From sequence record PP400786: DNA of 64,000 nucleotides, one strand, 5' to 3'. A model generated the notes under the pieces. That model was given only the letters and a program-made list of their open reading frames with translations. It did no database searches and had not been told where the DNA came from. The DNA comes from Escherichia phage FL12. Below are positions 3,015-58,589 of this stretch, piece after piece. Both the position numbers and the translations under genes were made by a program. How positions within the stretch are numbered: the stretch's first letter is position 1; each line of letters begins with the position of its first letter.

Positions 3015-3516
3015 TTAAAAGTATTTTTTAAAACTCATCATAACTTTATCATCAACATCATTATCAATCTGTGCAACAAGGTAAGATGACAGTTCTACTT
3101 CTTGTGGCGCGGATTGAACATTATCAGAATTAAGATATTCACGAATCCAAGGATACGGATGTTTAACCGGAGCATCGGTAATTGGGCATGGAAGACCACA
3201 CTGTTTCATACGAGATACAGTTAAGTAATCAATAAAGCTCCACATGCTATTTGTATTTAATCCAGGAACATCACCATCTTTAAATAAATGAACTGCCCAA
3301 TCTTTTTCTTGGCGGTTAACTTCCATGAAAATATCAACTGCTTCTTGTTCACACTCTTGAGCAATTTTAACCCATTCATCACCATCAGTGCCGGATTGAA
3401 GTTGACGAATAATATATTGAGTGCCTTTAAGATGAAGCTGCTCATCACGAGCAATGAACTTCATAATCTTGGCATTACCTTCCATGATTTCCATGTTCTT
3501 ATGGAAGTTAAAGGTA
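3015..3516 (-). CDS. nrdB: ribonucleotide reductase beta subunit, exon 2
   Basis: ...TFNFHKNMEIMEGNAKIMKFIARDEQLHL... is the conserved R2 region that follows ...FYVSFAC; splice acceptor inferred. Confidence 0.7.
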
Positions 3517-4107: not shown

Positions 4108-4783
4108 ACGCAAAAGATACATAAAAACGAATAGCTTCTAAGGCATTAATAACGTGCAAACAGAGGTAAAGAGATTTCATTAAAGCACGTTTAGCTTCGG
4201 CTTCTTGTTTAATAGCTCGGTTTAAACGAAAGTCGGCATCAGGAGATTCTTTAGCTAGTTCTACAAATTCTTTAGCATTTTCCCATTCACGGGTTTTAAC
4301 CAAGACATCATCATAATAACGTCCAATGGATTCAGCTCGTTTCATAATAGCTTCATCTAATACAATCTCATCAAATACCTTTGACGGATCAGTATAAAGA
4401 TTTCGCATGATATGAGTATATGAACGACTGTGAATAGTTTCACTAAAAGTCCATGTAGCAACCCATGTATCTAATGAAGGATCTGAAAGCAATGGCATAA
4501 GTACCGCAGATGGTGCACGACCTTGAATGCTATCAAGTAACGATTGATATTTAAGATTATTAGTAAAAATATTTTGTTGATACTGAGGAAGTTTATTAAA
4601 TTGAGTAGCATCCATCATCAAGTTAACTTCTTCAGGACGCCAGAAAAACGAGAGCTGACGTTCAATAAGTTCTTCAAATACCCTATGTCGTTGAATATCA
4701 TAACGTGCAATTCCAAGACCAGACCCAAAAAACATGGGTTCTGTTAAAACATCGACCTGTTTAGTATTAAAAACTGTACTCAT
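4108..4783 (-). CDS. nrdB: ribonucleotide reductase beta subunit, exon 1
   Basis: MSTVFNTKQVDVL... ending ...ALEAIRFYVSFA, the conserved R2 radical-site region. Confidence 0.8.
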
Positions 4784-6391: not shown

Positions 6392-7381
6392 TCATAATTT
6401 ACAGGATGAACAATCTTCAGCTTTTGGAGTTTCTATTTCATAATCATCAGTACCAGAACCATCACGGGTATTATGATAATAGAAATTTTTAATGCCATAA
6501 TACCATCCGTATAGCATGTCATCAATCATTATTGACATTGGAACCTTTCCTTTTGGAAAAATCTGCGGGTCATAATATGTATTCGCTGAAGCTGATTGAC
6601 ATACCCATTTCAGCATAATAGCTACCTGCGTAAGATAAGGTTTATTACCTTTCTTAGCTAATTTCCATGTATAGTCGTAAAGGTCTATGTTATGCTCAAT
6701 ATTGGGCACGACTTGATTAAAGGAGCCCTCTTTTGATTCTTTAACAGAGACTGGTCCACGTGGAGGCTCGATACCGTTTGTACTGTTAGAAACTTGGGAA
6801 GATGACTCACATGGCATAAGTGCTGATAATGTGCTATTACGGATGCCAAAGAGCTTAAGGTCTTCCCGCAGCGCCGACCAATCACAAACGTATTTTGGAG
6901 CTGCGATTTGGTCAATCTTTTTATTGTACCAGTCGATAGGTAATTCGCCTCGAGACCAACGAGTGTCTGAATAATATTCGCAAGGTCCTTTTTCTTTGGC
7001 GAGCTTAATGGATGCTTTAATGAGTCCATACTGTAATCTCTCAAATAGTTCATGTGTTAAATCGTTAGCATCTTCATAAGAAGCAAAGTTACTTGCCAGC
7101 CAAGCTGCATAGTTGGTAACACCTACACCAAGATTTCGACGCTTTTTAGCTTTTTCTGCTTCAGGAACTGGATATCCTTGGTAATCCAAAAGATTATCAA
7201 GAGCACGAACTTGAACTTCTGCCAATTCATTAATTTTATCTTGGTCTTGCCAGTCAAAATTATCCAGTACGAATGCGCTAAGGGTACAAAGCCCCACTTC
7301 TCCCTTGTTTTCAATAACTTCTATTGTAGTATACTCATCATCTTCGTAAAATTCATCTACAAATTCATAATCAATATTCAT
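6392..7381 (-). CDS. nrdA: ribonucleotide reductase alpha subunit, C-terminal fragment
   Basis: ...GLCTLSAF...LSALMPCESSSQ...NTRDGSG...CSSCKL, matching the C-terminal third of class Ia R1. Confidence 0.85.
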   Translation of the reverse strand: MNIDYEFVDEFYEDDEYTTIEVIENKGEVGLCTLSAFVLDNFDWQDQDKINELAEVQVRALDNLLDYQGYPVPEAEKAKKRRNLGVGVTNYAAWLASNFASYEDANDLTHELFERLQYGLIKASIKLAKEKGPCEYYSDTRWSRGELPIDWYNKKIDQIAAPKYVCDWSALREDLKLFGIRNSTLSALMPCESSSQVSNSTNGIEPPRGPVSVKESKEGSFNQVVPNIEHNIDLYDYTWKLAKKGNKPYLTQVAIMLKWVCQSASANTYYDPQIFPKGKVPMSIMIDDMLYGWYYGIKNFYYHNTRDGSGTDDYEIETPKAEDCSSCKL

Positions 7382-8081
7382 TTAATTCTTTTACCTTTTT
7401 TCTAGTAATTCCTAAAGCTTTAGATGCTCGATGTATTGATTGATATTCTATACCGTTTATTTTTACAGCAATTAAGTTATGGGGTTTTAATCCCTTTGGA
7501 TGAGGTTTACTGACGAAAACTAAATTATCAAGCTCTGAAATCTTATCCAATTTCTTACACTTAAATCCTTTGTGATGCGACCGTTTACCTTTACAAACGG
7601 CTGACATTGCAGATGGATTTAAATTATGCTCTTTACAAAATTCGTTAAGACCTCGATGAATTTCCTCATGACCATCAGGAAATGTAAACACCCAAGATGT
7701 TTGAAGTCGAGATTTAACTTCTGGAGACATAGGAATACCTTTGTTCCAAGCTGGTTTGCCTTTATTATTTTCAGATACAGAAATAGCCAATTTTCTTCTA
7801 AGCCACCCATGGCGTTTATTGGTGTTCTTTCGTTCAATATTATCTTTAGAATAAACACACATCATATTAGCGGCAAATATCAATTTATGATTATTTGGAT
7901 ATATCTTTACTAATAATTGATGAGCTATGTAATGCTCTTCTGGCGTCAAATCTACCAGGTTTTCCTTTGTATCAGAACCACCAATACACAGAGGTATAAT
8001 ATGGTGTGATTCGGTATAGCAATCTAATTTTCTATTCTTAGCTTTAGAAATAAGGTTATTGTAAATTTTAAAATAATCCAT
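7371..8081 (-). CDS. HNH homing endonuclease inserted within nrdA
   Basis: 236-aa ORF with ESHHIIPLCIGGSDTKENLVDLTPEEHYIAH motif; stop overlaps the start region of the downstream nrdA fragment. Confidence 0.8.
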   Translation of the reverse strand: MDYFKIYNNLISKAKNRKLDCYTESHHIIPLCIGGSDTKENLVDLTPEEHYIAHQLLVKIYPNNHKLIFAANMMCVYSKDNIERKNTNKRHGWLRRKLAISVSENNKGKPAWNKGIPMSPEVKSRLQTSWVFTFPDGHEEIHRGLNEFCKEHNLNPSAMSAVCKGKRSHHKGFKCKKLDKISELDNLVFVSKPHPKGLKPHNLIAVKINGIEYQSIHRASKALGITRKKVKELNEY

Positions 8082-8126
8082 AACTTTTCCTCTTGTTATG
8101 GATTATTTATTAACGGTCTGTGTACT

Positions 8127-9560
8127 TTATTTGCTTTGAATTATACCGTCAGGATTAGCTTCATAAAACTTAGCTACATCCGACTTCTTAATTTTGATTA
8201 AACGGGTTTGTTGGCTATTCACATCATTTGTTGGAATAGCAATTTCACAACACAAGTTACTCTGACGAATAGGCGCCTTTTCGCGAATAAACGGAGTGTA
8301 GTTATTCGTATTATCAATGAACTGTACATAAATCCTTGCTGTTCCTGAACGTTCAGTCATGAGCAATTCAAATAGTTCACGGGCTTTAATACGCTTTTTA
8401 CGAATATTAGGGTCTTTTTCTGCTGCTTCGTATAATTCACGGAAACGGTCTTGGTCTTTAAAATAAGAATAATAAAGCTCGCCACCCATTTCATGTGGAC
8501 TGAACAAAGTAATGTAATCGTTCTTTCCAAAACGTTCCATCATCAAATCATTCAGCTGAACACCATAATCCATATGACGAATGCGGTTTTCTTCTACGCC
8601 TTTGTTATTTTTCAAAACGAGAAGATTTTCAACTTCCAAATGCCAAATAGGATAATAAGCAGTAGCAGCGCCGCCACGAATTCCACCCTGTGAACATGAT
8701 TTAACTGCAGTCTGAAAATGTTTCCAAAAAGGAATAACACCAGTATGGCGTACTTCACCCATGCCAATCTTAGAACCTTCGGCACGAATCATACCAACGT
8801 TAATACCAATTCCAGCGCGTTTAGAGATATATTCAACAATTGAAGCGGAAGCCTTATTGATAGACTTCAATGAATCTCCTGCCTCAATAACAACACATGA
8901 ACTAAACTGTCGAGTAGGAGTACGACAACCAGCCATAATAGGAGTTGGCAGTGAAATTTGTCGGGTTGATACTGCTTCATAAAAACGAATAACGTGTTTT
9001 AGTCTATCAACAGGTTCATCTTGATGCAGTGCCATTCCAATAGTCATAAATGCAAACTGTGGAGTTTCATAAATTTGACCAGTGGTTTTATCTTTAACTA
9101 GATATTTTTCTTTTAATTGCATCGCCCCGGAATAAGTAAATTCCATATCCCGCTCATGCTTAATTTTTGATTCTAAAAATGTAATTTCTTCTGCTGAATA
9201 TTTTGACAATAATTCAGGGTCGTATTTACCTTCATTTACACAGTAAGAAATATGGTCAATAAATGAACGTGGTTCATACTGCCCATAAACATGCTTACGA
9301 AGAGCGAACATTAGACAACGTGCAGCTACATATTGATAATCAGGCTCTTCAACCGAAATAGAATTCGCAGCGGCCTTAATGACAATAGTCTGAATATCAT
9401 CAGTTGTCATTCCATCACGGAGATAAGATTTAATATTTTCATATAATTCATAAGGATCTACTGATGTTCCTTCAGCTGCCCAAGATAAAACTTTAATAAT
9501 TTTTTGTGGGTCAAAGCTCTGAGAAACACCACTACTTTTGATAACATTAATTAATTGCAT
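8127..9560 (-). CDS. nrdA: ribonucleotide reductase alpha subunit, N-terminal fragment
   Basis: ATP-cone N-terminus; ...MAGCRTPTRQFSSCVVIE... and ...SNLCCEIAIPTNDVN then 26 non-conserved residues and stop. Confidence 0.85.
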   Translation of the reverse strand: MQLINVIKSSGVSQSFDPQKIIKVLSWAAEGTSVDPYELYENIKSYLRDGMTTDDIQTIVIKAAANSISVEEPDYQYVAARCLMFALRKHVYGQYEPRSFIDHISYCVNEGKYDPELLSKYSAEEITFLESKIKHERDMEFTYSGAMQLKEKYLVKDKTTGQIYETPQFAFMTIGMALHQDEPVDRLKHVIRFYEAVSTRQISLPTPIMAGCRTPTRQFSSCVVIEAGDSLKSINKASASIVEYISKRAGIGINVGMIRAEGSKIGMGEVRHTGVIPFWKHFQTAVKSCSQGGIRGGAATAYYPIWHLEVENLLVLKNNKGVEENRIRHMDYGVQLNDLMMERFGKNDYITLFSPHEMGGELYYSYFKDQDRFRELYEAAEKDPNIRKKRIKARELFELLMTERSGTARIYVQFIDNTNNYTPFIREKAPIRQSNLCCEIAIPTNDVNSQQTRLIKIKKSDVAKFYEANPDGIIQSK

Positions 9561-16180: not shown

Positions 16181-19100
16181 ATGGCCGAGATTAAAAGAAA
16201 GTTCAGAGCAGAAGATGGTCTGGACGCAGGTGGTGATAAAATAATCAACGTAGCTTTAGCTGATCGTACCGTAGGAACTGACGGTGTTAACGTTGATTAC
16301 CTAATTCAAGAAAACACAGTTCAACAATACGATCCAACTCGTGGATATTTAAAAGATTTTGTAATCATTTATGATAACCGCTTTTGGGCTGCTATAAATG
16401 ATATTCCAAAACCGGCAGGAGCTTTTAATAGCGGACGCTGGAGAGCATTACGTACCGATGCTAACTGGATTACAGTCTCATCTGGTTCATATCAATTAAA
16501 ATCAGGTGAAGCTATTTCGGTTAACACTGCAGCTGGTAATGGTATTACATTTACTTTACCATCTACTCCAATTGACGGTGATACTATCGTTCTCCAAGAC
16601 ATTGGAGGAAAACCTGGAGTTAATCAAGTTTTAATTGTAGCTCCAGTGCAAAGTATTGTAAACTTCAGAGGCGAGCAAGTACGTTCAGTACTAATGACTC
16701 ATCCAAAGTCACAGTTAGTTTTAATTTTTAGTAATCGTCTGTGGCAAATGTATGTAGCTGATTATAGTAGAGAAGCTGTAGTTGTAACACCAGCGAATAC
16801 TTATCAAGCGCAATCCAACGATTTTATCGTACGTAGATTTACTTCTGCTGCACCGATAAATATTAAACTTCCGAGATTTGCTAATCATGGCGATATTATT
16901 AATTTCGTTGATTTAGATAAACTGAATCCACTTTATCATACAATTGTTACTACATACGATGAAACGACTTCAGTACAAGAAGTTGGAACTCATTCCATTG
17001 AAGGCCGTACATCTATTGACGGTTTCTTGATGTATGATGATAATGAGAAATTGTGGAGATTGTTTGACGGGGATAGTAAAGCGCGTTTACGCATTATAAC
17101 GACTAATTCTAATATTCGTCCAAATGAAGAAGTTATGGTATTTGGTGCGAATAACGGAACAACTCAAACAATTGAGCTTAAGCTTCCAACTAATATTTCT
17201 GTTGGTGATACTGTTAAAATTTCCATGAATTACATGAGAAAAGGACAAACAGTTAAAATCAAAGCTGCTGATGAAGATAAAATTGCTTCTTCAGTTCAAT
17301 TGCTGCAATTCCCAAAACGCTCAGAATATCCGCCTGAAGCTGAGTGGGTTACAGTCCAAGAATTAGTTTTTAATGGTGAAACTAATTATGTTCCAGTTTT
17401 AGAGCTTGCTTATATAGAAGATTCTGATGGAAAATACTGGGTTGTACAGCAAAACGTTCCAACTGTAGAAAGAGTAGATTCTTTAAATGATTCTACTAGA
17501 GCAAGATTAGGCGTAATTGCTTTAGCTACACAAGCTCAAGCAAATGTCGATTTAGAAAATTCTCCACAAAAAGAATTAGCAATTACTCCAGAAACGTTAG
17601 CTAATCGCACTGCTACTGAAACTCGCAGAGGTATTGCAAGAATAGCAACTACTGCTCAAGTGAATCAGAACACCACATTCTCTTTTGCAGATGACCTTAT
17701 CATTACTCCTAAAAAGCTGAATGAAAGAACTGCTACAGAAACTCGTAGAGGTGTCGCAGAAATTGCTACGCAGCAAGAAACTAATACAGGTACTGATGAT
17801 ACTACAATCATTACTCCTAAAAAGCTTCAAGCTCGTCAAGGTTCTGAATCATTATCTGGTATTGTAACTTTTGTATCTACCGCAGGTGCTACTCCAGCTT
17901 CTAGCCGTGAATTAAATGGTACGAATGTTTATAATAAAAACACTAATAATTTAGTTGTTTCACCTAAAGCTTTGGATCAGTATAAAGCTACGCCTACTCA
18001 ACAGGGTGCAGTAATTTTAGCAGTTGAAAGTGAAGTAATTGCTGGACAAAGTCAGCAAGGATGGGCAAATGCTGTTGTAACGCCAGAAACGTTACATAAA
18101 AAGACATCAACTGATGGAAGAATTGGTTTAATTGAAATTGCTACGCAAAGTGAAGTTAATACAGGAACTGATTATACTCGTGCAGTCACTCCTAAAACTT
18201 TAAATGACCGTAGAGCAACTGAAAGTTTAAGTGGTATAGCTGAAATTGCTACACAAGTTGAATTCGACGCAGGCGTCGACGATACTCGTATCTCTACACC
18301 ATTAAAAATTAAAACCAGATTTAATAGTACTGATCGTACTTCTGTTGTTGCTCTATCTGGATTAGTTGAATCAGGAACTCTCTGGGACCATTATACACTT
18401 AATATTCTTGAAGCAAATGAGACACAGCGTGGTACACTTCGTGTGGCTACACAAGTTGAAGCTGCTGCAGGAACATTAGATAATGTTTTAATAACTCCTA
18501 AAAAGCTTTTAGGTACTAAATCTACCGAATCGCAAGAGGGTGTTATTAAAGTTGCAACTCAGTCTGAAGCTGTGGCTGGAACGTCAGCAAATACTGCTAT
18601 ATCTCCAAAAAATTTAAAATGGATTGTGCAGAGTGAACCTTCTTGGAGAGCAACTACTGCGGTAAGAGGGTTTGTTAAAACTTCATCTGGTTCAATTACA
18701 TTCGTTGGTAATGATACAGTCGGTTCTACCCAAGATTTAGAACTATATGAGAAAAATAGCTATGCAGTATCACCATATGAATTAAACCGTGTATTAGCAA
18801 ATTATTTGCCGTTAAAAGCAAAAGCTGCTGATACAAATTTATTGGATGGTCTAGATTCATCTCAGTTCATTCGTAGGGATATTGCACAGACGGTTAATGG
18901 TTCACTAACCTTAACCCAGCAAACGAATCTGAGTGCCCCTCTTGTATCATCTAGTACTGCTACGTTTGGTGGATCAGTTTCGGCAAATAGTACATTAACT
19001 ATTTCTAATACTGGAACGGCAACTCGTCTGATTTTTGAGAAAGGACCTCAAACTGGAACTAACCCAGCACAGACGATGACTATCAGAGTTTGGGGAAATC

Positions 19101-20053
19101 AGTTTGGCGGCGGTTCAGATACAACACGTTCTACTGTATTTGAAGTTGGTGATGAAACATCTAATCACTTTTATTCTCAACGTAATACAGCTGGAAAGAT
19201 ATTGTTTAATATCAATGGTACTGTAATGCCGATAGATGTAAATGCTTCTGGTTCATTGAATGCGAATGGCGTTGCAACATTTGGTAATTCAGTTACTGCT
19301 AATGGAGAATTTACCAGTAAATCAGCAAATGCTTTTAGAGCAATAAATGGAAATTACGGATTCTTTATTCGTAATGCTGGTAATGACACCTATTTTATGC
19401 TCACTGCAGCCGGTGATCAGTTTGGTGGATTTAATGGATTACGTCCATTATCAATTAATAATCAATCCGGTCAAGTTACAATTGGTGAAGGGCTTATCAT
19501 TAGTAAAGGTGGAGCAACAATTAACAGCGGTGGTTTAACTGTTAACTCGAGAATTCGCTCTCAGGGTACTAAAACATCTGATTTATATACCCGTGCGCCA
19601 ACATCTGATACGGTAGGATTCTGGTCAATTGATATTAACGATTCAGCCACTTATAACCAGTTCCCGGGTTATTTTAAAATGGTTGAAAAAACTAATGAAG
19701 TGACTGGGCTTCCATACTTAGAACGTGGCGAAGAAGTTAAATCTCCTGGTACACTGACTCAGTTTGGTAACACACTTGATTCGCTTTACCAAGATTGGAT
19801 TACTTATCCAACTACCCCAGAAGCACGCACCACTCGCTGGACACGTACATGGCAGAAAACCAAAAATTCTTGGTCGAGTTTTGTTCAGGTATTTGATGGA
19901 GGTAACCCTCCTCAGCCGTCTGATATCGGTGCTTTGCCATCTGATAATGCTACAATGGGGAATCTTACTATTCGTGATTTCTTACGAATTGGTAATGTTC
20001 GCATTATTCCTGACCCAGTGAATAAATCTGTTAAATTTGAATGGATTGAATAA
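16181..20053 (+). CDS. 34: long tail fibre proximal subunit
   Basis: 1290-aa ORF MAEIKRKFRAEDGLDAGGDKIINVALADR...; internal ...ITP(E/K)(T/K)L..R.ATE... repeats. Confidence 0.9.
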   Translation: MAEIKRKFRAEDGLDAGGDKIINVALADRTVGTDGVNVDYLIQENTVQQYDPTRGYLKDFVIIYDNRFWAAINDIPKPAGAFNSGRWRALRTDANWITVSSGSYQLKSGEAISVNTAAGNGITFTLPSTPIDGDTIVLQDIGGKPGVNQVLIVAPVQSIVNFRGEQVRSVLMTHPKSQLVLIFSNRLWQMYVADYSREAVVVTPANTYQAQSNDFIVRRFTSAAPINIKLPRFANHGDIINFVDLDKLNPLYHTIVTTYDETTSVQEVGTHSIEGRTSIDGFLMYDDNEKLWRLFDGDSKARLRIITTNSNIRPNEEVMVFGANNGTTQTIELKLPTNISVGDTVKISMNYMRKGQTVKIKAADEDKIASSVQLLQFPKRSEYPPEAEWVTVQELVFNGETNYVPVLELAYIEDSDGKYWVVQQNVPTVERVDSLNDSTRARLGVIALATQAQANVDLENSPQKELAITPETLANRTATETRRGIARIATTAQVNQNTTFSFADDLIITPKKLNERTATETRRGVAEIATQQETNTGTDDTTIITPKKLQARQGSESLSGIVTFVSTAGATPASSRELNGTNVYNKNTNNLVVSPKALDQYKATPTQQGAVILAVESEVIAGQSQQGWANAVVTPETLHKKTSTDGRIGLIEIATQSEVNTGTDYTRAVTPKTLNDRRATESLSGIAEIATQVEFDAGVDDTRISTPLKIKTRFNSTDRTSVVALSGLVESGTLWDHYTLNILEANETQRGTLRVATQVEAAAGTLDNVLITPKKLLGTKSTESQEGVIKVATQSEAVAGTSANTAISPKNLKWIVQSEPSWRATTAVRGFVKTSSGSITFVGNDTVGSTQDLELYEKNSYAVSPYELNRVLANYLPLKAKAADTNLLDGLDSSQFIRRDIAQTVNGSLTLTQQTNLSAPLVSSSTATFGGSVSANSTLTISNTGTATRLIFEKGPQTGTNPAQTMTIRVWGNQFGGGSDTTRSTVFEVGDETSNHFYSQRNTAGKILFNINGTVMPIDVNASGSLNANGVATFGNSVTANGEFTSKSANAFRAINGNYGFFIRNAGNDTYFMLTAAGDQFGGFNGLRPLSINNQSGQVTIGEGLIISKGGATINSGGLTVNSRIRSQGTKTSDLYTRAPTSDTVGFWSIDINDSATYNQFPGYFKMVEKTNEVTGLPYLERGEEVKSPGTLTQFGNTLDSLYQDWITYPTTPEARTTRWTRTWQKTKNSWSSFVQVFDGGNPPQPSDIGALPSDNATMGNLTIRDFLRIGNVRIIPDPVNKSVKFEWIE

Positions 20054-20061
20054 GAGGTATT

Positions 20062-21177
20062 ATGGAAAAATTTATGGCAGAGTTTGGACAAGGATATGTC
20101 CAAACGCCATTTTTATCGGAAAGTAATTCAGTAAGATACAAAATAAGTATAGCGGGTTCTTGCCCGCTTTCTACTGCAGGACCATACGTTAAATTTCAGG
20201 ATAATCCTGTTGGAAGTCAAACATTTAGCGCAGGTCTTCATCTAAGAGTTTTTGACCCTTCCACCGGAGCATTAGTTGATAGTAAGTCATATGCTTTTTC
20301 TACTTCAAATGATACTACATCAGCTGCTTTTGTTAGTTTCATGAATTCTTTGGCGAATAATAGACTTGTTGCTATATTAACTAGCGGAAAGGTTAATTTT
20401 CCTCCTGAAGTAGTATCTTGGTTAAGAACCGCAGGAACGTCTGCTTTTCCATCTGATTCTTTATTGTCAAGATTTGACGTATCATATGCTGCCTTTTATA
20501 CTTCTTCTAAAAGAGCTATTGCATTAGAACATGTTAAACTAAGTAATAGAAAAAGCACAGATGATTATCAAACTATTTTAGATGTTGTATTTGACAGTTT
20601 AGAGGACGTTGGAGCCACAGGATTTCCTAAAAGAACATACGAAAGCGTTGAGCAATTTATGTCGGCGGTTGGAGGAACTAATAACGAAATTGCACGTCTA
20701 CCAACTTCAGCTGCCATAAGTAAATTATCTGACTATAATTTAATTCCTGGCGATGTTCTTTATCTCAAAGCACAGTTATATGCTGATGCCGATTTACTTG
20801 CGCTTGGAACTACAAATATATCTATCCGTTTTTATAACTCATCGAATGGATATATTTCCTCGACACAAGCTGAGTTTACCGGGCAAGCTGGTTCTTGGGA
20901 ATTAAAAGAAGATTATGTGGTTGTTCCAGAAAACGCTGTCGGATTTACGATATATGCACAGAGAACTGCGCAAGCTGGTCAAGGTGGCATGAGAAATTTA
21001 AGCTTTTCTGAAGTGTCAAGAAATGGCGGTATTTCAAAACCCGCTGAATTTGGCGTCAATGGTATTCGTGTTAATTATATCTGTGAATCCGCTTCACCTC
21101 CGGATATAATGGTACTTCCTACACAAGCATCGTCTAAAACTGGTAAAGTGTTTGGGCAAGAATTTAGAGAAGTTTAA
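20062..21177 (+). CDS. 35: long tail fibre hinge protein
   Basis: 371-aa ORF directly after gene 34. Confidence 0.85.
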   Translation: MEKFMAEFGQGYVQTPFLSESNSVRYKISIAGSCPLSTAGPYVKFQDNPVGSQTFSAGLHLRVFDPSTGALVDSKSYAFSTSNDTTSAAFVSFMNSLANNRLVAILTSGKVNFPPEVVSWLRTAGTSAFPSDSLLSRFDVSYAAFYTSSKRAIALEHVKLSNRKSTDDYQTILDVVFDSLEDVGATGFPKRTYESVEQFMSAVGGTNNEIARLPTSAAISKLSDYNLIPGDVLYLKAQLYADADLLALGTTNISIRFYNSSNGYISSTQAEFTGQAGSWELKEDYVVVPENAVGFTIYAQRTAQAGQGGMRNLSFSEVSRNGGISKPAEFGVNGIRVNYICESASPPDIMVLPTQASSKTGKVFGQEFREV

Positions 21178-21182
21178 ATTGA

Positions 21183-21207
21183 GGGAGCCTTCGGGTTCCC
21201 TTTTTCT
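21183..21207 (+). terminator. intrinsic terminator after gene 35
   Basis: Hairpin GGGAGCC-UUCG-GGUUCCC followed by U5. Confidence 0.6.
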
Positions 21208-21208: not shown

Positions 21209-21216
21209 TATAAATA
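21209..21216 (+). promoter_or_regulatory. late promoter
   Basis: Exact TATAAATA 24 nt upstream of gene 36 ATG. Confidence 0.7.
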
Positions 21217-21239: not shown

Positions 21240-21929
21240 ATGGCTGATTTAAAAGTAGGTTCAACAACTGGAGGCTCTGTCATTTGGCATCAAGGAAATT
21301 TTCCATTGAATCCAGCCGGTGACGATGTACTCTATAAATCATTTAAAATATATTCAGAATATAACAAACCACAAGCTGCTGATAACGATTTCGTTTCTAA
21401 AGCTAATGGTGGCACAGATTCTCAAGGTTTCCAAAAAGAAGTAGAATTTAAAAAAGGTGTTAAGATTTCTGCAACGTTTCCTGGCGGTTCAAACCTGAAT
21501 GGGTTATATTCTGGCAATGGAGATGGAGCTTCCAGAGAAAAAGCTAACATGGATTTACGTTCATGGTACGGCATTGGTATTTGGAACTCATGCACAGGTG
21601 ATGGGTTCCAGGGACGCACAATCTGGTTTAATGTCAGGCGTGGTACAGTTGAAACACTTGGCGATATTGTTTCGGGCCGGCAAGTTATTTCTAATGCTTC
21701 AGGACCGACCGGCCCAGCACACTTAACTCGCAAAGATTATGTTGATGGAGCAATAAATAATGTTACAGCAAATGCGAACTCTAGAGTGTTGCGTTCTGGT
21801 GACACTATGACAGGTAATTTAACGGCGCCAAACTTTTTCTCGCAGAATCCCGCATCTCAACCTTCACATGTTCCACGATTTGACCAAATCGTAATTAAGG
21901 ATTCTGTTCAAGATTTCGGCTATTATTAA
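21240..21929 (+). CDS. 36: long tail fibre distal connector
   Basis: 229-aa ORF between 35 and 37. Confidence 0.8.
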   Translation: MADLKVGSTTGGSVIWHQGNFPLNPAGDDVLYKSFKIYSEYNKPQAADNDFVSKANGGTDSQGFQKEVEFKKGVKISATFPGGSNLNGLYSGNGDGASREKANMDLRSWYGIGIWNSCTGDGFQGRTIWFNVRRGTVETLGDIVSGRQVISNASGPTGPAHLTRKDYVDGAINNVTANANSRVLRSGDTMTGNLTAPNFFSQNPASQPSHVPRFDQIVIKDSVQDFGYY

Positions 21930-21937: not shown

Positions 21938-24900
21938 ATGGCTACTTTAAAACAAATACAATTTAAAAGAAGCAAAACCGCAGGTGCACGTCCTGCTGCT
22001 TCAGTATTAGCCGAAGGTGAATTGGCTATAAACTTAAAAGATAGAACAATTTTTACTAAAGATGATTCAGGAAATATCATTGATCTAGGTATTGCTAAAG
22101 GCGGCCAGGTTGATGGTGATGTGACTATCAATGGTAAATTAACATTAAATGGCGCGTATGTTCAGACGCTGGCTGGTATTAATACCACGGGTGGTATTAA
22201 TTCTGGGGCCGCTATAAGTGCAACAACTTATTATGCTCGGTCTGGTTCTTTTTATGCTCGTGCTCCAGATGCCAATGCGAATACACATATTTGGTTTGAA
22301 AATAACAATGGTATAGAACGTGGTGTGATTTGGGCTGTTCCGAACACTTCAGACCTTGGCCAGGTCAAAATTCGTGCAAAAACTACAGGTGGTGTTTTTG
22401 CCGGCGAGTACAGTTTCCGCTCTGATGGCCAATTTGAGGTTCCTGTAGCAGTTAAAATCGGCGGGGCCGCGATGCTAACCAAAGACGGTAACATTACATC
22501 GGGTTCATTGTTTGGTGGTAATCTTAATAACTATTTGAATACCATTAAAAATGACATTGTTACTGGTGATAATAAGAAAGTGAGTAAAACCGGTGACACG
22601 ATGTCCGGTAACTTGACTATTAACGCTAACTTAAAAGTCGAAAACTCTAACGGAACGTTTGTTGATTTAGGTTCAGAGAACTCTGATAAGAATAGCAGAT
22701 TAACTCTTGCTCGTAAAATTGGCGATGGCGCTGGTGTAGCAATGCTTAAAGTTACTCCTGAAGGAAACGTGCAATTTGGTTATCAACCTACAGTTGCTAC
22801 TCCATCTCCTACCAAGTATATTCTAATTAAATCTAACGGTCTTGAAGTAGAAGGGGATTTAGTTTTTAAGCAAACTTACCGTGGTGTTGAAGAAGCAGTT
22901 GATATTACTAATCAGACTATTGACCTTAATAGCCTTATTATTAGAGGATCAGATTTAGGTACTCGTAAGCTGTATAAATGCAGATCATCTGGAGGTGGTT
23001 CTAATATATTGAACAAACCTACATCTGATGGCAACTTTACTCTTGAAGTTCTGTCTTTACGCAAGGTTTCTGATACCGATTGGTCATGTAAGCAGACCTT
23101 TACTACAAAGAACAATAATGTTGTAGGCGTATATGTTCGCTACGGGCAAGTCGGCTCATGGACTGAGTGGAAAGAGGTTGTTGCTGGTGTTCAACCAATT
23201 AATTTAGGTGGTACTGGAGCAACTTCTGTAGCTGCTGCCCGTAATAACCTTGGTGTTGGTGAAGGCCAAACTGTAACATTCGGTAATTTAGTTACCAACA
23301 ATTTAAATGCAAACGGACAAGTTAAAATCGGCAGGACCGGCGATGCATTAAGAATTTGGAATGCTGAATATGGTGCTATTTTCCGTCGCTCAGAAACAGC
23401 ATTACATATTATCCCGACTCCTAAAGACGCCGGTGAAAGCGGTGGAATAAGTAATCTTCGTCCATTAAGTATCGGCCTTAATAATGGTATGGTGCAAATG
23501 CGTCATTCTGTTGAGTTAGGCGATGATGGAGCTGGCGGTAATATGATTACTGTTGATAATGATAGTAAAAATGTTGTGATAACTTCTAATGCCAGATTAA
23601 GCCCTAATTTCCGCATGCAATTAGGGCAGGCGTCGTACATTGATGCCGAATGCACTACCTCTGTTCGCCCTGCTGGAGCTGGTTCATTTGCTTCACAGAA
23701 TAATGAAAACGTTCGTGCCCCGCTCTATATGAATATTGATAGGACTGATAATAGTACTTATGTTCCTATTTTAAAACAACGTTATGTTCAAGGAAATAGC
23801 TGTTATTCTTTAGGTACTTTAATAAATAACGGTGATTTTCGTTTACATTACCATGAAGGCGGCGACGGTTCTTCGACAGGTGCAGTTATAAAAGATATTT
23901 CCTGGGAATTTAAACGTAATGGTGATTTCTATTCTCCGGGGCGTTTGCGCACTGCAAACGTTTATATCGGAACTGATGGTAACATTACAGGTGGTTCTGG
24001 TAATTTTGCCAACTTAAATACCACGTTAAACCGTAAAGTTAATGTTGGCGGTTGGGCTGGTAGTTCTTATGGTGGATGGTACAAATTTGCTACGGTAACA
24101 ATTCCTCAAGGTACTGGTACAGTAACTTTTAAGATTTCTGGTGGTGCTGGTTTTAATTTTAAAAGATATAGCCAAGCTTCTATTGCTGAGATAGTTCTTC
24201 GCACAGGTAATAATAATCCTAAAGGCATAAACGCTGTACTATGGAACAGGTCAGACCTAAGTTTTAATCAGATAGCTACTATGAATACATCTGGTGATAC
24301 TTATGATGTATACGTGTTCTGTGACGGTTATACAAATGCATTAGTGGTTGAATATTCTTGTAGTGAAAACTCTTCGGTAACTGTAGTCGGTCTTAACGGA
24401 GGCATTCAACCGGCTGTTGATGCATTGCCTGAGGGACATGTTGTAGGTAAAACAGTTCGTCTGTTAAATAATATTGGCGGAACTTTCGCAGCCGGCGAAT
24501 CTGACATTGTTACTCGTGGTGAATACGTTACTGATAATCAAAAAGGCATGCGTATTAAATCTAACGGTAATAATATCGGTTCTAATGCTGCTATACTTCG
24601 AAATGACGGCAGAAGTTTTTATATTTTAGCTACAGATAAAAATACAGCAGAAAAATCCGATGCAGCTAATGGTGATTGGAACTCATTGCGTCCTTTTACA
24701 ATAAGCATGACTACCGGTGAAGTATCAATGAATAACGGCATAACTGTTCGTAACTATGCCACATTCTATAATGATATTGTTCTCAAAGATAATGGTTATA
24801 TTCACTTTAATAAGTCTGGCAATAATCCAAGAAACATGAGTATATTCCATGCCGGAGATGCCACACGTGGTAACCGTATTGAAATTGCTGATGATTCAAG

Positions 24901-25477
24901 TTATTTAGTTTATTTTCAACGTTTACCGGGCGGCGCTAACCAGTGTACATTTAACTCTGCTGCTCTTTCTGGTATAACGCAGACTAACTCTTTTGGTGTC
25001 AATACATCAAACGCACTTGGTGGAAATAGTATAACGTTTGGTGATAATGACACTGGTATTAAGCAAAATGGTGATGGATTATTAGACATATATACGAACA
25101 GCGTACAAGTGTTCCGTTTCCAAAACGGTGATTTGTACTCATACAAAAATATAAATGCTCCAAACGTTTATATTCGTTCTGATATTCGTTTAAAATCCAA
25201 CTTTAAACCTATCGAAAATGCACTCGATAAAGTTGAAAAACTTAACGGTGTCATTTACGATAAAGCTGAATACATCGGTGGAGAGGCAATTGAAACTGAA
25301 GCGGGTATTGTGGCTCAAACGTTACAAGACGTTTTACCAGAAGCTGTCCGTGAAACAGAAGACAGTAAGGGTAATAAAATACTCACTGTTTCTTCTCAAG
25401 CCCAGATTGCTCTTCTGGTTGAAGCTGTGAAAACACTTTCTTCTCGTGTAAAAGAACTTGAATCTAAACTTATGTAA
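21938..25477 (+). CDS. 37: long tail fibre distal subunit with C-terminal intramolecular chaperone domain
   Basis: MATLKQIQFKRSK...; conserved ...RIWNAEYGAIFRRSE... and ...RMQLGQASYIDAECT...; C-terminus ...SDIRLKSNFKPIENALDKVEKLNGVIYDKAEY... Confidence 0.85.
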   Translation: MATLKQIQFKRSKTAGARPAASVLAEGELAINLKDRTIFTKDDSGNIIDLGIAKGGQVDGDVTINGKLTLNGAYVQTLAGINTTGGINSGAAISATTYYARSGSFYARAPDANANTHIWFENNNGIERGVIWAVPNTSDLGQVKIRAKTTGGVFAGEYSFRSDGQFEVPVAVKIGGAAMLTKDGNITSGSLFGGNLNNYLNTIKNDIVTGDNKKVSKTGDTMSGNLTINANLKVENSNGTFVDLGSENSDKNSRLTLARKIGDGAGVAMLKVTPEGNVQFGYQPTVATPSPTKYILIKSNGLEVEGDLVFKQTYRGVEEAVDITNQTIDLNSLIIRGSDLGTRKLYKCRSSGGGSNILNKPTSDGNFTLEVLSLRKVSDTDWSCKQTFTTKNNNVVGVYVRYGQVGSWTEWKEVVAGVQPINLGGTGATSVAAARNNLGVGEGQTVTFGNLVTNNLNANGQVKIGRTGDALRIWNAEYGAIFRRSETALHIIPTPKDAGESGGISNLRPLSIGLNNGMVQMRHSVELGDDGAGGNMITVDNDSKNVVITSNARLSPNFRMQLGQASYIDAECTTSVRPAGAGSFASQNNENVRAPLYMNIDRTDNSTYVPILKQRYVQGNSCYSLGTLINNGDFRLHYHEGGDGSSTGAVIKDISWEFKRNGDFYSPGRLRTANVYIGTDGNITGGSGNFANLNTTLNRKVNVGGWAGSSYGGWYKFATVTIPQGTGTVTFKISGGAGFNFKRYSQASIAEIVLRTGNNNPKGINAVLWNRSDLSFNQIATMNTSGDTYDVYVFCDGYTNALVVEYSCSENSSVTVVGLNGGIQPAVDALPEGHVVGKTVRLLNNIGGTFAAGESDIVTRGEYVTDNQKGMRIKSNGNNIGSNAAILRNDGRSFYILATDKNTAEKSDAANGDWNSLRPFTISMTTGEVSMNNGITVRNYATFYNDIVLKDNGYIHFNKSGNNPRNMSIFHAGDATRGNRIEIADDSSYLVYFQRLPGGANQCTFNSAALSGITQTNSFGVNTSNALGGNSITFGDNDTGIKQNGDGLLDIYTNSVQVFRFQNGDLYSYKNINAPNVYIRSDIRLKSNFKPIENALDKVEKLNGVIYDKAEYIGGEAIETEAGIVAQTLQDVLPEAVRETEDSKGNKILTVSSQAQIALLVEAVKTLSSRVKELESKLM

Positions 25478-25479
25478 AA

Positions 25480-25495
25480 GAGGGCTTCGGCCCTC
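25480..25495 (+). other. RNA hairpin between genes 37 and 38
   Basis: GAGGGC-UUCG-GCCCUC; weak U-tract, so more likely a structure element than a strong terminator. Confidence 0.35.
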
Positions 25496-25507
25496 TAAGG
25501 ATTTTTA

Positions 25508-26287
25508 ATGGCAATTGTAGGTGTTCCTGGCTGGATTGGCGAATCTGCCGTGAATGAAACCGGACAACGTTGGATGGATGCTGCGATGAGAGCTGTTCGT
25601 GTTTCAGTTCCCGGTTGGATGAGCTCAATGGCTGGACAATCTAAAGAAATTATTCACACGCTTGGAGCAGACCATAACTTCAATGGTCAATGGTTCCGAG
25701 ATAGATGTTTTGAGGCAGGTAGTACACCTATAGTGTTTAATATTACAGGTGATTTAGTATCATATTCTAAAGATGTTCCTTTATTCTTCATGTATGGAGA
25801 TACACCGAATGAATATGTTCAGTTGAATATACACGGCGTAACGATGTATGGACGTGGCGGTAATGGCGGTAGCAATAGTCCTGGCTCAGCTGGAGGTCAT
25901 TGTATTCAAAACGATATTGGTGGGAGACTAAGAATTAATAATGGTGGAGCTATTGCAGGCGGCGGCGGCGGCGGCGGCGGCGGTAACAGGGGTAGACTAG
26001 TATTTGGTGGCGGCGGTGGTCGTCCATTTGGTGCTGGTGGGTCTTCCTCTCATATGAGTGCTGGTGCAACCGCTGGCACCATTTACGCTCCGGGTGCAGG
26101 ATCTGTCGGTGAGGGGTCTCTTAGTGCATATACAGGCGGGTCTGGTGGTGAAGTTGGCTCCGCAGGAGGTAGATGTAATACTCACGGTGCCGGTACAGAA
26201 TATAACGGCGGTGCTGCCGGTTATGCCGTCATAGGATCTACACCGACATGGCAAAACGTTGGAGCAATATATGGTCCAAGAGTATAA
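25508..26287 (+). CDS. 38: T2-type receptor-recognising adhesin with glycine-rich motifs
   Basis: [23 protein letters not shown]... N-terminus; poly-Gly segments [28 protein letters not shown]. Confidence 0.85.
25958..25984 (+). repeat. (GGC)8-GGT trinucleotide tract encoding Gly9 within gene 38
   Basis: Read directly: ggcggcggcggcggcggcggcggcggt. Confidence 0.9.
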
Positions 26288-26317
26288 TTTGAATAAATAT
26301 CCTTAAAAGGAGGGTCT

Positions 26318-26974
26318 ATGGCAGCACCTAGAATATCATTTTCGCCCTCTGATATTCTATTTGGTGTTCTAGATCGCTTGTTCAAAGATAACGCTACCGG
26401 GAAGGTTCTTGCTTCCCGAGTAGCTGTCGTAATTCTTTTGTTTATAATGGCGATTGTTTGGTATAGGGGAGATAGTTTCTTTGAGTACTATAAGCAATCA
26501 AAGTATGAAACATACAGTGAAATTATTGAAAAGGAAAGAAATGCACGCTTTGAATCTGTCGCCCTGGAACAACTCCAGATAGTTCATATATCATCTGAGG
26601 CAGACTTTAGTGCGGTGTATTCTTTCCGCCCTAAAAACTTAAACTATTTTGTTGATATTATAGCATACGAAGGAAAATTACCTTCGACAATAAGTGAAAA
26701 ATCACTTGGAGGATATCCTGTTGATAAAACTATGGATGAATATACAGTTCATTTAAATGGACGTCATTATTATTCCAACTCAAAATTTGCTTTTTTACCA
26801 ACTAAAAAGCCTACTCCCGAAATAAACTACATGTACAGTTGTCCATATTTTAATTTGGATAATATCTATGCTGGAACAATAACAATGTACTGGTATAGAA
26901 ATGATCATATAAGTAATGACCGCCTTGAATCAATATGTGCTCAGGCGGCCAGAATATTAGGAAGGGCTAAATAA
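26318..26974 (+). CDS. t: holin
   Basis: 218-aa ORF MAAPRISFSPSDILFGVLDRLFKDN... with one TM segment. Confidence 0.9.
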   Translation: MAAPRISFSPSDILFGVLDRLFKDNATGKVLASRVAVVILLFIMAIVWYRGDSFFEYYKQSKYETYSEIIEKERNARFESVALEQLQIVHISSEADFSAVYSFRPKNLNYFVDIIAYEGKLPSTISEKSLGGYPVDKTMDEYTVHLNGRHYYSNSKFAFLPTKKPTPEINYMYSCPYFNLDNIYAGTITMYWYRNDHISNDRLESICAQAARILGRAK

Positions 26975-37792: not shown

Positions 37793-38605
37793 TTAGGACA
37801 TCCAACACATTTTATAACCTTTGCAGGTTCTGTTAGGATTATTTAATGCTTTCAATATATTAGAAGACCCTATATCTAAATACTCCCTTAATTCATAAAG
37901 ATAGTTAAAATCAACAGTTTCACCTGTTTTTACACTTGTGATTCTTATAGGCCTTCTTTCATATTTAGATTTATACAACTCTCTAGTCTTAGCTTTAGTT
38001 TCTTCTGACCTAGGAGTGTATGGTTTAAATCCTTTTGTTTTAAATGTTTCCATTCTTGATTTAGTTATTTTATCCTGGTGTTCTTTTGTTTTTACAGGTG
38101 CTTTTCGCCCATTCTCCCAAGATAACTTGTTGGCCTGTATTATTTTATCTATTGCTTCTTGCGTATGAGTTTTACCATAAAATGGATTTAATTCGCCTAT
38201 ACGTTGTGAAGCAATATGTGACATTAATTCTCTTGTTGCTTTAGTATGTTTTTTACCTTTAAATGGGTTGCCATTTTTAGCAATCCATTCTTTCATAAAT
38301 CTAGAGTGCTCTTTAGAGAATTCTTGTTTAAGCCAATCATAATCTCTAGAATTTCTAGCTCCCATGTAAAAAGCTCTAATAGCCATAAGCATAGAACGGT
38401 TCTTATGAATTTTATAAAGCAATAAATGGGCGATAAAATGCTCTCTAGGGGTCATTTTAACTAGATTTGATTTAGCATTACTCCCGCCCATAGATTTAGG
38501 CAAAATATGGTGAGTTTCAGTATAATTAGGAATAGTGCTGCGGTTTTTAGCCGCAGCGATAAGTTTATCATAAATTTTACGATAATTCATTATCGTAGCA
38601 TCCAA
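37793..38605 (-). CDS. free-standing HNH homing endonuclease with NUMOD-like repeats
   Basis: 270-aa ORF; ETHHILPKSMGGSNAKSNLVKMTPREHFIAH; repeats NPFKGKKHT and NPFYGKTHT; 5' end overlaps gene 39 3' end by 16 nt. Confidence 0.8.
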   Translation of the reverse strand: MDATIMNYRKIYDKLIAAAKNRSTIPNYTETHHILPKSMGGSNAKSNLVKMTPREHFIAHLLLYKIHKNRSMLMAIRAFYMGARNSRDYDWLKQEFSKEHSRFMKEWIAKNGNPFKGKKHTKATRELMSHIASQRIGELNPFYGKTHTQEAIDKIIQANKLSWENGRKAPVKTKEHQDKITKSRMETFKTKGFKPYTPRSEETKAKTRELYKSKYERRPIRITSVKTGETVDFNYLYELREYLDIGSSNILKALNNPNRTCKGYKMCWMS

Positions 38606-40410
38606 TCTTTACGGAGTTCAGGGTCGTTACCCATGAGCATTTCAAATAGTTCTTTCCAATTTTCAGGAAGTTTAACTACGTCGTACACAGGGTTTTGAAT
38701 CATTTCTTTATATTCATCCCGCTGAAGTGAGCCCAATCCCTTGATGTATCGAATACTATGCTTAGGCAGTGTATCTTTAGCTTCTTCATACTCAGCTACA
38801 GTATAAAACCATTTTTGAGTTTTGCCAATTTGTGCAATAATTACAGGCGTTTTAACAAAGCGAATACGTCCTTGTTCAAACAATTCAGGCCAATTACTAA
38901 AGAAAGCAAGCAAAGCCGGATAAATACTTCCAAGTCCGTCATGATCGGCATCGGTCATAATAGCAATATTATGATAATTCAAGTTTTCAGCTTTTTCACC
39001 GAGAACTAATCCAGTGATTGCGCAAATATCAAATAGTTCTTTGTTTTTAAGCATATCTGCATAAGACATACCCCAACTGTTGAGAACTTTACCACGCAAT
39101 GGATAACCACCGTGAAGTTCTTTATCACGAACATCAATAAGATATCCGATAGCAGAATCACCCTCAGTCAAGAAAAGAGTAGTGTCAGCATCTTTACCAC
39201 AAAGATTCGCTTTGATATGTTTATGAACCTTAGCTTTAGAAGCCTTTTTAGCTGCCTTTGTTTCTGCTGCTTTTTCTGCCGCCAATTTACGAGCTAGTGC
39301 AGCTTCAATAATCGGCATTAAAATTGCTTCATTATTCAAAATAGCACGTGAAATCTTTTTAGCATCAAGTTGAATATGACTACGGATTTCACCAAATGGA
39401 GAAGTCAAACGCTCTTTAGTTTGAGAATCAAATCGCATGTTTTTCATATCACGAACAAACATAACGATAGTCAAACATTCTTTGACACGCGCTTTAGTTA
39501 CATCAATTTTGAACTTGCGTTTGATTTGTGGAATAAGGTCTTCACAAATATCATCCATAACACAGTCAATGTGATGGCCACCATTCTTAGTATGAATGTT
39601 ATTCACATAAGTTAATTGACGAAAACCATCCGGTGAACGACCAACCGCAATAGAACAGTTTTCTTGTTCTTGAACGATAGCATGCTCATCATACTGCCGT
39701 GCATATTTCTTAAAATTGCCCTGAACCTTTTTACCATTAAAGGTAAATTGAATATCAGGATAAACAACAGCAAGTGTCTGGAGACGATCCAGTGTAATGT
39801 CAAGATAAACCTGAGACAGCTCATTAGTTTCAAATGACATAAAATCAGGAATGAAAGTAACGCGAGTTCCTTTCCATTTTCCAGGAATATCTTCCCATGA
39901 TTTATTTTCCATGCCGTTTGAACAACGAACTACAATATTATTTTGACCATCGCCAGTTTCACCAACAAACATCACAGAAAAAATGTTTGTCAAACTAGAA
40001 CCAACACCATTCATACCACCGGTGACACGTTCTTTATCATCACCAAAGTTACCACCTGCTTTTGGAATAGTCCATGCAGCAACAGGACCAGGAATTTCTT
40101 CACCGGTAGGTGTTTTAACCATCGCTTGTGGAATACCACGACCGTTATCTTCAACTGTTACTTGATTGTTTTTAATAGTAACATTAATTTTATTTGCGAA
40201 TTTAAACTTAGTACGAATACCTTCATCTACTGAGTTATCGATAATTTCATCAATAAGCTTAACAAGACCAGGTACATACTGAACACTTTCCCATTTACCA
40301 AACAGAAAGCGCTCATGCATTTCATTAGCTGAAGAGCCAATGTACATGCCGCTACGCTTTTTGATATGTTCAATATCGCTCAGAATTTTAATTTCATTCT
40401 TAATCATCAC
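38590..40410 (-). CDS. 39: DNA topoisomerase II large subunit, uninterrupted (T4 39 plus 60 equivalent)
   Basis: 606-aa ORF with GHKL ATPase N-terminus and Toprim C-terminus (...IAIMTDADHDGLGSIYP...) in one frame. Confidence 0.9.
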   Translation of the reverse strand: MMIKNEIKILSDIEHIKKRSGMYIGSSANEMHERFLFGKWESVQYVPGLVKLIDEIIDNSVDEGIRTKFKFANKINVTIKNNQVTVEDNGRGIPQAMVKTPTGEEIPGPVAAWTIPKAGGNFGDDKERVTGGMNGVGSSLTNIFSVMFVGETGDGQNNIVVRCSNGMENKSWEDIPGKWKGTRVTFIPDFMSFETNELSQVYLDITLDRLQTLAVVYPDIQFTFNGKKVQGNFKKYARQYDEHAIVQEQENCSIAVGRSPDGFRQLTYVNNIHTKNGGHHIDCVMDDICEDLIPQIKRKFKIDVTKARVKECLTIVMFVRDMKNMRFDSQTKERLTSPFGEIRSHIQLDAKKISRAILNNEAILMPIIEAALARKLAAEKAAETKAAKKASKAKVHKHIKANLCGKDADTTLFLTEGDSAIGYLIDVRDKELHGGYPLRGKVLNSWGMSYADMLKNKELFDICAITGLVLGEKAENLNYHNIAIMTDADHDGLGSIYPALLAFFSNWPELFEQGRIRFVKTPVIIAQIGKTQKWFYTVAEYEEAKDTLPKHSIRYIKGLGSLQRDEYKEMIQNPVYDVVKLPENWKELFEMLMGNDPELRKDWMLR

Positions 40411-58581: not shown

Positions 58582-58589
58582 ATAATACC

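Follow-up and report, generated by a model that had tools for sequence, protein, structure and literature searches.

Genes 37 and 38 of Escherichia phage FL12: a T2-type distal tail-fibre tip of mosaic composition in a Tequatrovirus genome

What kind of receptor-binding tip do genes 37 and 38 of Escherichia phage FL12 encode, and is it foreign to the genome that carries it? We studied these genes in a window of 64,000 nucleotides (sequence record PP400786), in which a scan of open reading frames (ORFs) placed gene 37 at 21938-25477 (positive strand, 1179 amino acids, aa) and gene 38 at 25508-26287 (positive strand, 259 aa), exactly the positions and lengths given in a preliminary description made from the sequence alone. 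That description had read the pair as a T2-type module, i.e., a fibre subunit ending in a chaperone domain plus a glycine-rich adhesin, swapped as a host-range cassette into a T4-type backbone. Our results indicate that the two genes in all probability encode the ordinary T2-type tip of the distal long tail fibre in a Tequatrovirus, as in the published FL12. The domain identities, motifs, predicted fold, mosaic boundaries and linkage statistics given below are observations made on this window and its relatives. The system itself is already known, annotated and characterised experimentally at the phage level, and nothing in it is new as a discovery; descriptions of the adhesin-type tip architecture go back to the 1980s.

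The gene order at the locus is 34, 35, 36, 37, 38 and holin t. An exact-sequence look-up returned FL12 proteins identical to the products of genes 36, 37 and 38 (gp36, XAO16658.1; gp37, XAO16659.1; gp38, XAO16660.1), the GenBank names being 'L-shaped tail fiber protein' for gp37 and 'adhesin protein' for gp38. The 1179-aa gp37, the precursor of the distal long-tail-fibre subunit, was the sole member of its own 90% identity cluster, and the closest gp37 in the phage collection, that of NIC06P2, was 79% identical over 83%. The exact product was absent from the assembly index; the cluster look-up does find gp37 in NCBI.

The end of gp37 is an intramolecular chaperone and auto-cleavage domain of the Peptidase_S74 family (PF13884). 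The Pfam match (aa 1081-1138, E = 3.4e-15, 56.5 bits with a cut-off of 22) spans profile positions 1-58 of 58, and the whole domain occupies aa 1081-1179 (25178-25474, positive strand; 99 aa, 10.8 kDa), a length of 99 aa also found in T2. Its first residues, beginning at aa 1081, form the motif SDIRLK, in which S1081, D1082, R1084 and K1086 were invariant in both alignments and L1085 in the 7-sequence alignment only; the Ser/Lys(+5) spacing equals that of Ser1264/Lys1269 in T5 pb1. The gp37 C-terminus aligned with the S16 gp37 fragment of PDB 6F45, and a search with a profile of these domains matched S16 gp37 (6f45_A, 1e-43), the MYRF auto-cleavage domain (7dc3, 1e-11), another tail fibre (8jov, 9e-10) and the GA-1 chaperone domain (3gud, 5.5e-4). 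Both peptides cited in the preliminary description were found, YIRSDIRLKSNFKPIENALDKVEKLNGVIYDKAEY in gp37 and the other as the gp38 N-terminus, and its assignment of a chaperone-type domain to the end of gp37 is borne out by the Pfam match, the S16 alignment, the invariant Ser/Lys pair and the profile matches to MYRF and GA-1. In the T5 L-shaped fibre, a Ser-to-Ala change at the cleavage serine blocks cleavage (PMC4690869). By analogy, gp37 very probably removes its folding domain by self-cleavage; the predicted cut, between R1080 and S1081, would leave a mature gp37 of 115 kDa and release the 99 aa (10.8 kDa).

Immediately before the putative cut lies NVYIR (aa 1076-1080; 25163-25177, positive strand), which the alignment predicts to be the last strand and the C-terminus of mature gp37, and on which gp38 would dock. 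With a slash at the cut, NVYIR/SDIRLK aligns with the published S16 site DLNVS/SDRRIKK and with the site predicted in fPS-phages, DVYIR/SDGRLKI (PMC7917993), and the tip/cleavage motif recurs in 19 related loci. The T4-style tip is absent: T4 gp37 has seven His-x-His (HxH) needle motifs at aa 883-998 and the C-terminal part of gp37 has none here, the sole HxH being HYH at aa 637, in the shaft. The PDB sequence search gave no match of gp37 to the T4 needle structure either, in agreement with the earlier statement that gp37 lacks a His-rich needle.

The segment preceding the cut has a wider distribution. The stretch aa 1013-1080 of gp37 (24974-25177; SNALGGNSITFGDNDTGIKQNGDG...) matched many 'phage tail protein' entries of E. 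coli, Salmonella and Shigella. Some entries come from contigs the size of a chromosome, which makes them probable prophage fibres, and several of the matches carry PF03406 or PF21446 without any S74 domain. A word-indexed protein search with the gp37 C-terminus likewise returned mainly short prophage tail-fibre fragments at aa ~1013-1080 and few sequences with the chaperone domain, and fed only a small alignment (A3). The gp37 profile search further reached tail fibre protein S of phage Mu (5yvq).

Gene 38 lies directly downstream of the chaperone-ended gene 37, and the same arrangement was seen in 19 related loci. By ORF and Pfam its product is a monomeric tail-fibre tip adhesin of 259 aa and 25.9 kDa, with matches to GP38 (PF05268, E = 1.1e-69, 235.1 bits) and Gp38_N (PF21721, E = 2.9e-18, 66 bits), both families having a cut-off of 25 bits, and to the PDB sequences of PP01 gp38 (9V85, E = 1.7e-79) and S16 gp38 (6F45 chain D, E = 3.3e-50). 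An AlphaFold2 model built with 45 homologues had a mean predicted local distance difference test (pLDDT) score of 87.8, the attachment domain being modelled at 58-67, as expected without gp37. Foldseek searches of the PDB with this model matched PP01 9v85 with a TM-score of 0.88 (normalised by target length), a root-mean-square deviation of 2.0 A and 67% identity, and S16 gp38 6f45_D with E = 6.5e-22; beyond PP01 and S16 nothing fell below E = 2. The model thus points to a three-domain fold made of an attachment domain, a beta-helix and a polyglycine-II sandwich.

The attachment domain of gp38 (aa 1-42; 25508-25633, positive strand), recognised by the Gp38_N match as the putative part that docks on the gp37 tip, is 98% identical to that of T2, and the first 48 aa are common to T2, which upholds the T2-like N-terminus noted previously. 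Within it, W9 and W22 were invariant in the 45 homologues. The conserved N-terminal tryptophans of S16 gp38 are prongs that insert into gp37 (PMC7917993), and by conservation W9 and W22 may be assigned as those docking tryptophans. The glycine-rich receptor-binding domain (aa 115-243; 25850-26236, positive strand) consists of conserved Gly motifs that alternate with hypervariable loops. Gly accounts for 35% of the residues in aa 115-259, including uninterrupted stretches of nine (151-159) and five (167-171), and in alignments of 12 and of 45 homologues invariant Gly columns flank variable stretches at about aa 160-166, 179-195, 199-210 and 221-233. Both Pfam families, the Gly runs and the fold matches to PP01 and S16 agree with the earlier identification of gp38 as a glycine-rich tip adhesin.

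To place this tip in its genome we compared the window with T4 and T2. Over the whole window, identity was 95.0% to T4 (85% aligned) and 94.9% to T2 (83% aligned). The holin was 99.5% identical to that of T4 and 97.7% to that of T2, and because both values are high it cannot tell a T4 from a T2 backbone. The backbone is a generic Tequatrovirus one and not specifically T4-like: of the T4-type backbone announced in the preliminary description, the T4-like flanks (96-99%) stand, but the genome is equally near T2 and its gene 39 is unsplit as in T2. Adhesin-type gp38 was present in 757 records of the phage collection, and T4-type gp38 in 210; Trojet et al. 2011 (PMC3157838) give the T2/T6 gp38, not the T4 version, as the predominant adhesin. 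Since the adhesin type is the commoner one and T4 the exception, a swap into a T4 backbone is not the natural reading, and Tequatroviruses normally combine a T4-like genome with a T2-type module.

The boundaries of homology within the locus are sharp. Homology to T4 DNA runs up to 24018 (gp37 aa ~694) and restarts at 26293, six bases past the gene 38 stop, the identity profile showing none over 24019-26292. T2 DNA homology occurs in three blocks, 23615-24681, 24992-25651 (96.4%) and from 26207 onward, the last starting at gp38 aa 234, inside the last glycine-rich motif. The second block, a single continuous BLASTn segment bordered by stretches without T2 match, comprises gp37 aa 1019-1179, the spacer between genes 37 and 38, which contains a UUCG hairpin, and gp38 aa 1-48 (positive strand), and we refer to it as the T2-like docking block. 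Residues 49-233 of gp38 are not T2-like: the core resembles T6, M1 and Ac3, the variable loops match Ac3, JSE and FL18, and the receptor-binding part as a whole is ~50% identical to T2. The T2-type label is therefore accurate for the docking half (gp37 tip, chaperone domain and gp38 aa 1-48) and not for the receptor-binding part of gp38, which is of the Ac3/JSE/FL18 type.

The gp37 shaft is also mosaic, with aa 1-466 94% identical to NIC06P2, and aa 440-937 and 1013-1179 respectively 76% and 95% identical to T2; T4 gp37 matches were restricted to aa 1-168 (62%) and aa 445-750 (55%). A variable segment of gene 37 (22168-23614, positive strand) is essentially without T4 or T2 DNA match, 23308-23396 alone aligning to T4/T2 in the identity profile. 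This segment is common to several other Tequatroviruses (megablast identity of 93-96% over query bases 1-1369 in BCH953P2, BCH953P4 and GRNsp7). The module is thus a recombinational mosaic inside the adhesin class, with a T2-like docking unit, a receptor-binding part of the Ac3/JSE/FL18 lineage and a shaft from other Tequatroviruses. Two divergent stretches were also noted further upstream, a peak in the C-terminal region of gp34 (19001-19400, 64-81% identity to T2 and T4) and the centre of gene 36 (21416-21725, no T4 or T2 DNA match); fibre mosaicism therefore reaches upstream of gene 37.

A linkage test asked whether the gp37 tip and the gp38 N-terminus vary together. Of 38 related loci fetched from IMG/VR, 17 were used with the window, T2 and NIC06P2 (20 loci), and pairwise identities of the gp37 C-terminus were compared with those of the gp38 parts by Mantel tests. 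By eye, each type of gp38 N-terminus pairs with a single gp37 tip type and a single length of the chaperone domain. The gp38 N-terminus correlated with both the gp37 tip and the chaperone domain at r = 0.72 (p = 0.0002, an optimistic value because the 20 loci are phylogenetically related), and the rest of gp38 correlated weakly with them (r = 0.15 and 0.21). Individual pairs show the same trend: between T2 and the window, identities were 0.87 for the tip, 0.99 for the chaperone domain, 0.98 for the gp38 N-terminus and 0.50 for the remainder of gp38; where the receptor-binding part of gp38 in a locus was similar (0.81-0.86), its tip was unrelated (0.17-0.27). The linkage agrees with an experiment that already implies it, in which PP01 gp38 rescued a T2 gene-38 deletion only with the T2 N-terminus (PMC12892980). 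The practical value of the locus is as a well-defined example for host-range engineering, in which 24992-25651 is the piece to be kept intact if the adhesin is to fit the fibre, and specificity is carried by gp38 aa ~49-233.

A broader interpretation of these data would make the docking unit a distinct, co-inherited unit of exchange that carries any receptor-binding domain onto a compatible fibre, the phage a chimera of at least three donors, and the shaft a part with further surface-binding or regulatory activity. Linkage of the docking unit is supported here, an additional function of the shaft is pure speculation, and the proposal taken whole appears quite unlikely.

FL12 is a Tequatrovirus that needs OmpA and does not infect an ompA deletion mutant (Npj Viruses 2025, PMC12032242). 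Together with FL18 and FL20, which belong to other genera (Mosigvirus and Krischvirus), it forms the narrow-host-range 'type 2' phages that share OmpA dependence, and the contact proposed for the FL12 type involves OmpA loops 3a/3b plus loop 2a (PMC12032242). Related tips have other receptors: FadL/OmpF for T2 (PMC3157838); OmpC of E. coli O157 for PP01 (PMC12892980); and Salmonella OmpC for the long tail fibres of S16, going by the title of Marti et al. 2013, cited in PMC12892980.

Taken together with what is known of S16, T5 and K1F, cleavage and docking in FL12 would proceed as follows. Three chains of the 1179-aa gp37 precursor would fold into the fibre under the guidance of the chaperone domain (aa 1081-1179). 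Once the trimer is correct, the Ser1081/Lys1086 pair would cut the R1080-S1081 bond and the 99-aa domain would depart. The exposed tip ...NVYIR could then take up one gp38, held by its N-terminal domain (aa 1-42, with W9 and W22), and the hypervariable loops of the gp38 polyglycine sandwich domain would bind extracellular loops of OmpA.

Comparison with known systems places this tip closest to that of T2, which has the same order 36-37-38-t, the same architecture and the same tip, NAPNVYIR/SDIRLKSN. The T2 shaft is longer (1341 vs 1179 aa), gp37 aa ~75-440 have no significant T2 counterpart save short repeat matches, and the two phages differ in the gp38 core and hypervariable loops (identity of about one half, as above) and in receptor, FadL/OmpF vs OmpA. 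With S16 (PDB 6F45), gp38 was matched over its full length (TM-score of the predicted fold 0.74-0.78, ~43% identity), and the gp37 C-terminus aligns with an auto-cleaved chaperone domain and its S-D-x-R-x-K motif, whereas the tip reads DLNVS/S instead of NVYIR/S and the chaperone domain has 112-113 aa instead of 99. PP01 gp38 (9V85) is the closest solved structure, nearly identical in the core (aa ~47-150) and different in the hypervariable loops. The adhesins of Ac3, JSE and FL18 carry the same hypervariable loop set in the alignment, and overall gp38 identity was 85-89% to Ac3, FL18 and FL20 and 68% to JSE; the attachment domains of these four adhesins are different ones. K1F endosialidase, T5 pb1, the GA-1 neck appendage and MYRF share with gp37 the Pfam family, the C-terminal place and the Ser/Lys(+5) pair, the domain of T5 pb1 having 133 aa. 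What sets gp37 apart is that the cut would expose a docking site for a separate adhesin instead of a receptor-binding surface. T4 has its fibre genes at the same genome position, and its gp37 is homologous in the N-terminus and in some of the shaft; its HxH needle is absent here, homology ends past aa ~750, and its gp38 is unrelated.

Could the tip nevertheless be a recent arrival, i.e., could a T4-like ancestor with a needle tip and a chaperone gp38 have received a T2-derived cassette in exchange? The limits of T4 homology at 24018 and 26293, the flanks 96-99% identical to T4, and a patch around segA and the beta-glucosyltransferase gene (beta-gt) that is 99.3-99.8% identical to T4 would all fit such an event, although sharp boundaries fit equally well with T4 as the lineage that changed. 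The cassette, moreover, is no T2 copy, with a receptor-binding part of gp38 that is ~50% identical to T2 and a shaft common to other phages. The backbone is equally near T2 (94.9% vs 95.0%), with gene 39 unsplit as there, and the adhesin type prevails both in the records (757 vs 210) and in the literature. The idea of a host-range cassette swapped into a T4 backbone, with which the preliminary description concluded, is disfavoured here by the adhesin majority and the nearness to T2, and we regard a recent replacement as unlikely, albeit the least so of the alternatives to a standard Tequatrovirus tip. The name 'distal long tail fiber assembly catalyst', a legacy borne by many homologue records, would suit a gp38 that acts merely as an assembly chaperone like T4 gp38 and leaves receptor binding to the gp37 tip; yet gp38 belongs to the adhesin family and matches the fold of solved receptor-binding gp38 proteins, the gp37 tip lacks the T4 needle motifs, and phages with the same gp38 type share OmpA dependence. 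By BLASTp gp38 had no match to T4 gp38 at E <= 1e-3, and a chaperone of the T4/lambda Tfa type was ruled out for that lack of homology; this role for gp38 is extremely improbable.

The S74-like domain might instead be a degenerate remnant kept on the mature fibre, a view helped by the fact that cleavage is predicted here from the sequence and by an uninformative monomer model. It is opposed by the match to the full Pfam profile (1-58 of 58), by the invariance of Ser and Lys(+5) in divergent homologues, and by S16, in which gp38 binds the cleaved tip. Residues 1013-1179 are also 95% identical to T2 gp37, from which a C-terminal segment is removed, as Drexler and colleagues reportedly found in 1986. 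A retained, inactive chaperone domain was rejected because the catalytic pair is invariant, and a mere remnant seems very unlikely. A standard T2-type tip thus remains the preferred reading, and several points weigh against it. The match to FL12 rests on three exact protein identities, and megablast and tblastn searches of the phage collection gave no record covering at least 80% of the region at the DNA level. Cleavage of gp37 and the presence of gp38 in the virion are extrapolated from other phages. The chaperone fold is supported by sequence and profile homology only; the AlphaFold2 monomer of gp37 aa 1001-1179 (7-sequence alignment; mean pLDDT 51, chaperone region below 50) is an unreliable model, which puts a terminal helix at model residues 154-178 and was kept out of the fold search because matches would be meaningless. 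OmpA dependence is a plaque phenotype at the phage level combined with AlphaFold-multimer, not measured gp38-OmpA binding (PMC12032242). The relatedness of the 20 loci, mentioned with the Mantel test, belongs here too.

The neighbouring fibre genes are gene 34 (16181-20053), gene 35 (20062-21177) and gene 36 (21240-21929, positive strand), all from the ORF list; gp36, the hinge or distal connector of the long tail fibre (229 aa; Pfam Phage_T4_gp36, E = 2.1e-23), is 71% identical to T4 gp36 and 72% to T2 gp36. The conserved right flank is the holin gene t (26318-26974, positive strand; Phage_holin_T, E = 7e-118). Upstream of gene 36, an exact match to the T4-type late promoter box TATAAATA lies at 21209-21216 (positive strand), and on that strand the vicinity of the fibre genes has just one more match, at 16139 and ahead of gene 34. 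Across the window the motif was not above its frequency in shuffled sequence and the argument for the box is its position; it probably starts a late transcript of genes 36-37-38. A sigma-70 scan of the fibre region was uninformative (46 sites vs 36.7 +/- 5.9 expected), and the genes are late ones.

A GC-rich hairpin with a UUCG loop (25479-25496, positive strand; -13.4 kcal/mol, z = -2.3) lies immediately behind the stop codon of gene 37, ahead of AAGGA, the ribosome-binding site of gene 38, and looks terminator-like. A similar GC-rich UUCG hairpin follows gene 35 (21181-21202). Somewhere under its match to this region, record X04442 of T2 carries the annotation 'stem-loop structure; pot. transcription terminator'. 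We infer only that the hairpin at 25479-25496 may lower the output of gp38 relative to gp37. A search of the whole window against Rfam gave no match at gathering thresholds, and therefore no curated RNA family explains the hairpins or the gaps in nrdB and nrdA described below.

Elsewhere in the backbone, the segA/beta-gt patch (58001-61000) is the only distinctly T4-like part, at 99.3-99.8% identity to T4 vs ~97% around it. It contains the homing endonuclease gene segA (58590-59267) and a T4-type beta-glucosyltransferase gene (59420-60475, negative strand; PF09198, E = 8.6e-97); in T2 the corresponding place is taken by an unrelated glucosyltransferase of 280 aa. The patch looks like one recently shared beside a homing endonuclease. 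The preliminary description was right in reporting a T4-type beta-glucosyltransferase, but wrong in having it flank the tip genes, from which it is 33 kb away. Gene 39, for the large subunit of topoisomerase II, is a single 606-aa ORF as in T2; the T4 gene 60 split and its translational bypass are therefore absent. An ORF of 270 aa with a NUMOD3 motif (37793-38605) lies between gene 39 and rIIA and overlaps the gene 39 end, in a stretch (37793-40410, negative strand) that is mostly unaligned to T4 and T2.

The ribonucleotide reductase (RNR) genes are also interrupted. The large-subunit gene nrdA (6392-9560, negative strand) is split into an N part of 477 aa (8127-9560, negative strand; ATP-cone, all-alpha domain and barrel positions 1-221) and a C part of 329 aa (6392-7381, negative strand; barrel positions 219-523), with a 236-aa I-HmuI/NUMOD-like endonuclease ORF between them (7371-8081). 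Neither T4 nor T2 aligns across this insert. At a coverage of at least 80%, the arrangement was found in four records of the phage collection only (FL23, FL44, Manna and vB_Eco_F26), all of which annotate two RNR alpha pieces and a homing endonuclease. The split nrdA may be a 'gene in pieces' or contain an intron; no Rfam intron was matched in the insert at the gathering score. Between nrdB and nrdA lies an ORF of 530 aa (4783-6375, negative strand) that T4 and T2 both lack (zero coverage at 5001-6000) and whose only Pfam match is a sub-threshold one to REase_MTES_1575. Salmonella phage SG1 has a 'putative Hef-like homing endonuclease' under the matching stretch, which very probably corresponds to this ORF. 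The nrdB gene is in two ORFs (4106-4783 and 3015-3494, negative strand) that are ~610 bp apart, in a part of the window (3001-4000) that aligns fully with T4 and to 52% only with T2. The gap falls where T4 nrdB has its group I intron, and it gave no Rfam match at the gathering score. Lastly, gp35 (20062-21177, 371 aa), which is 98% identical to T4 gp35, has at aa 58-127 a Pfam match to ILEI, 'interleukin-like EMT inducer' (E = 3.5e-8, 34.3 bits with a cut-off of 27).

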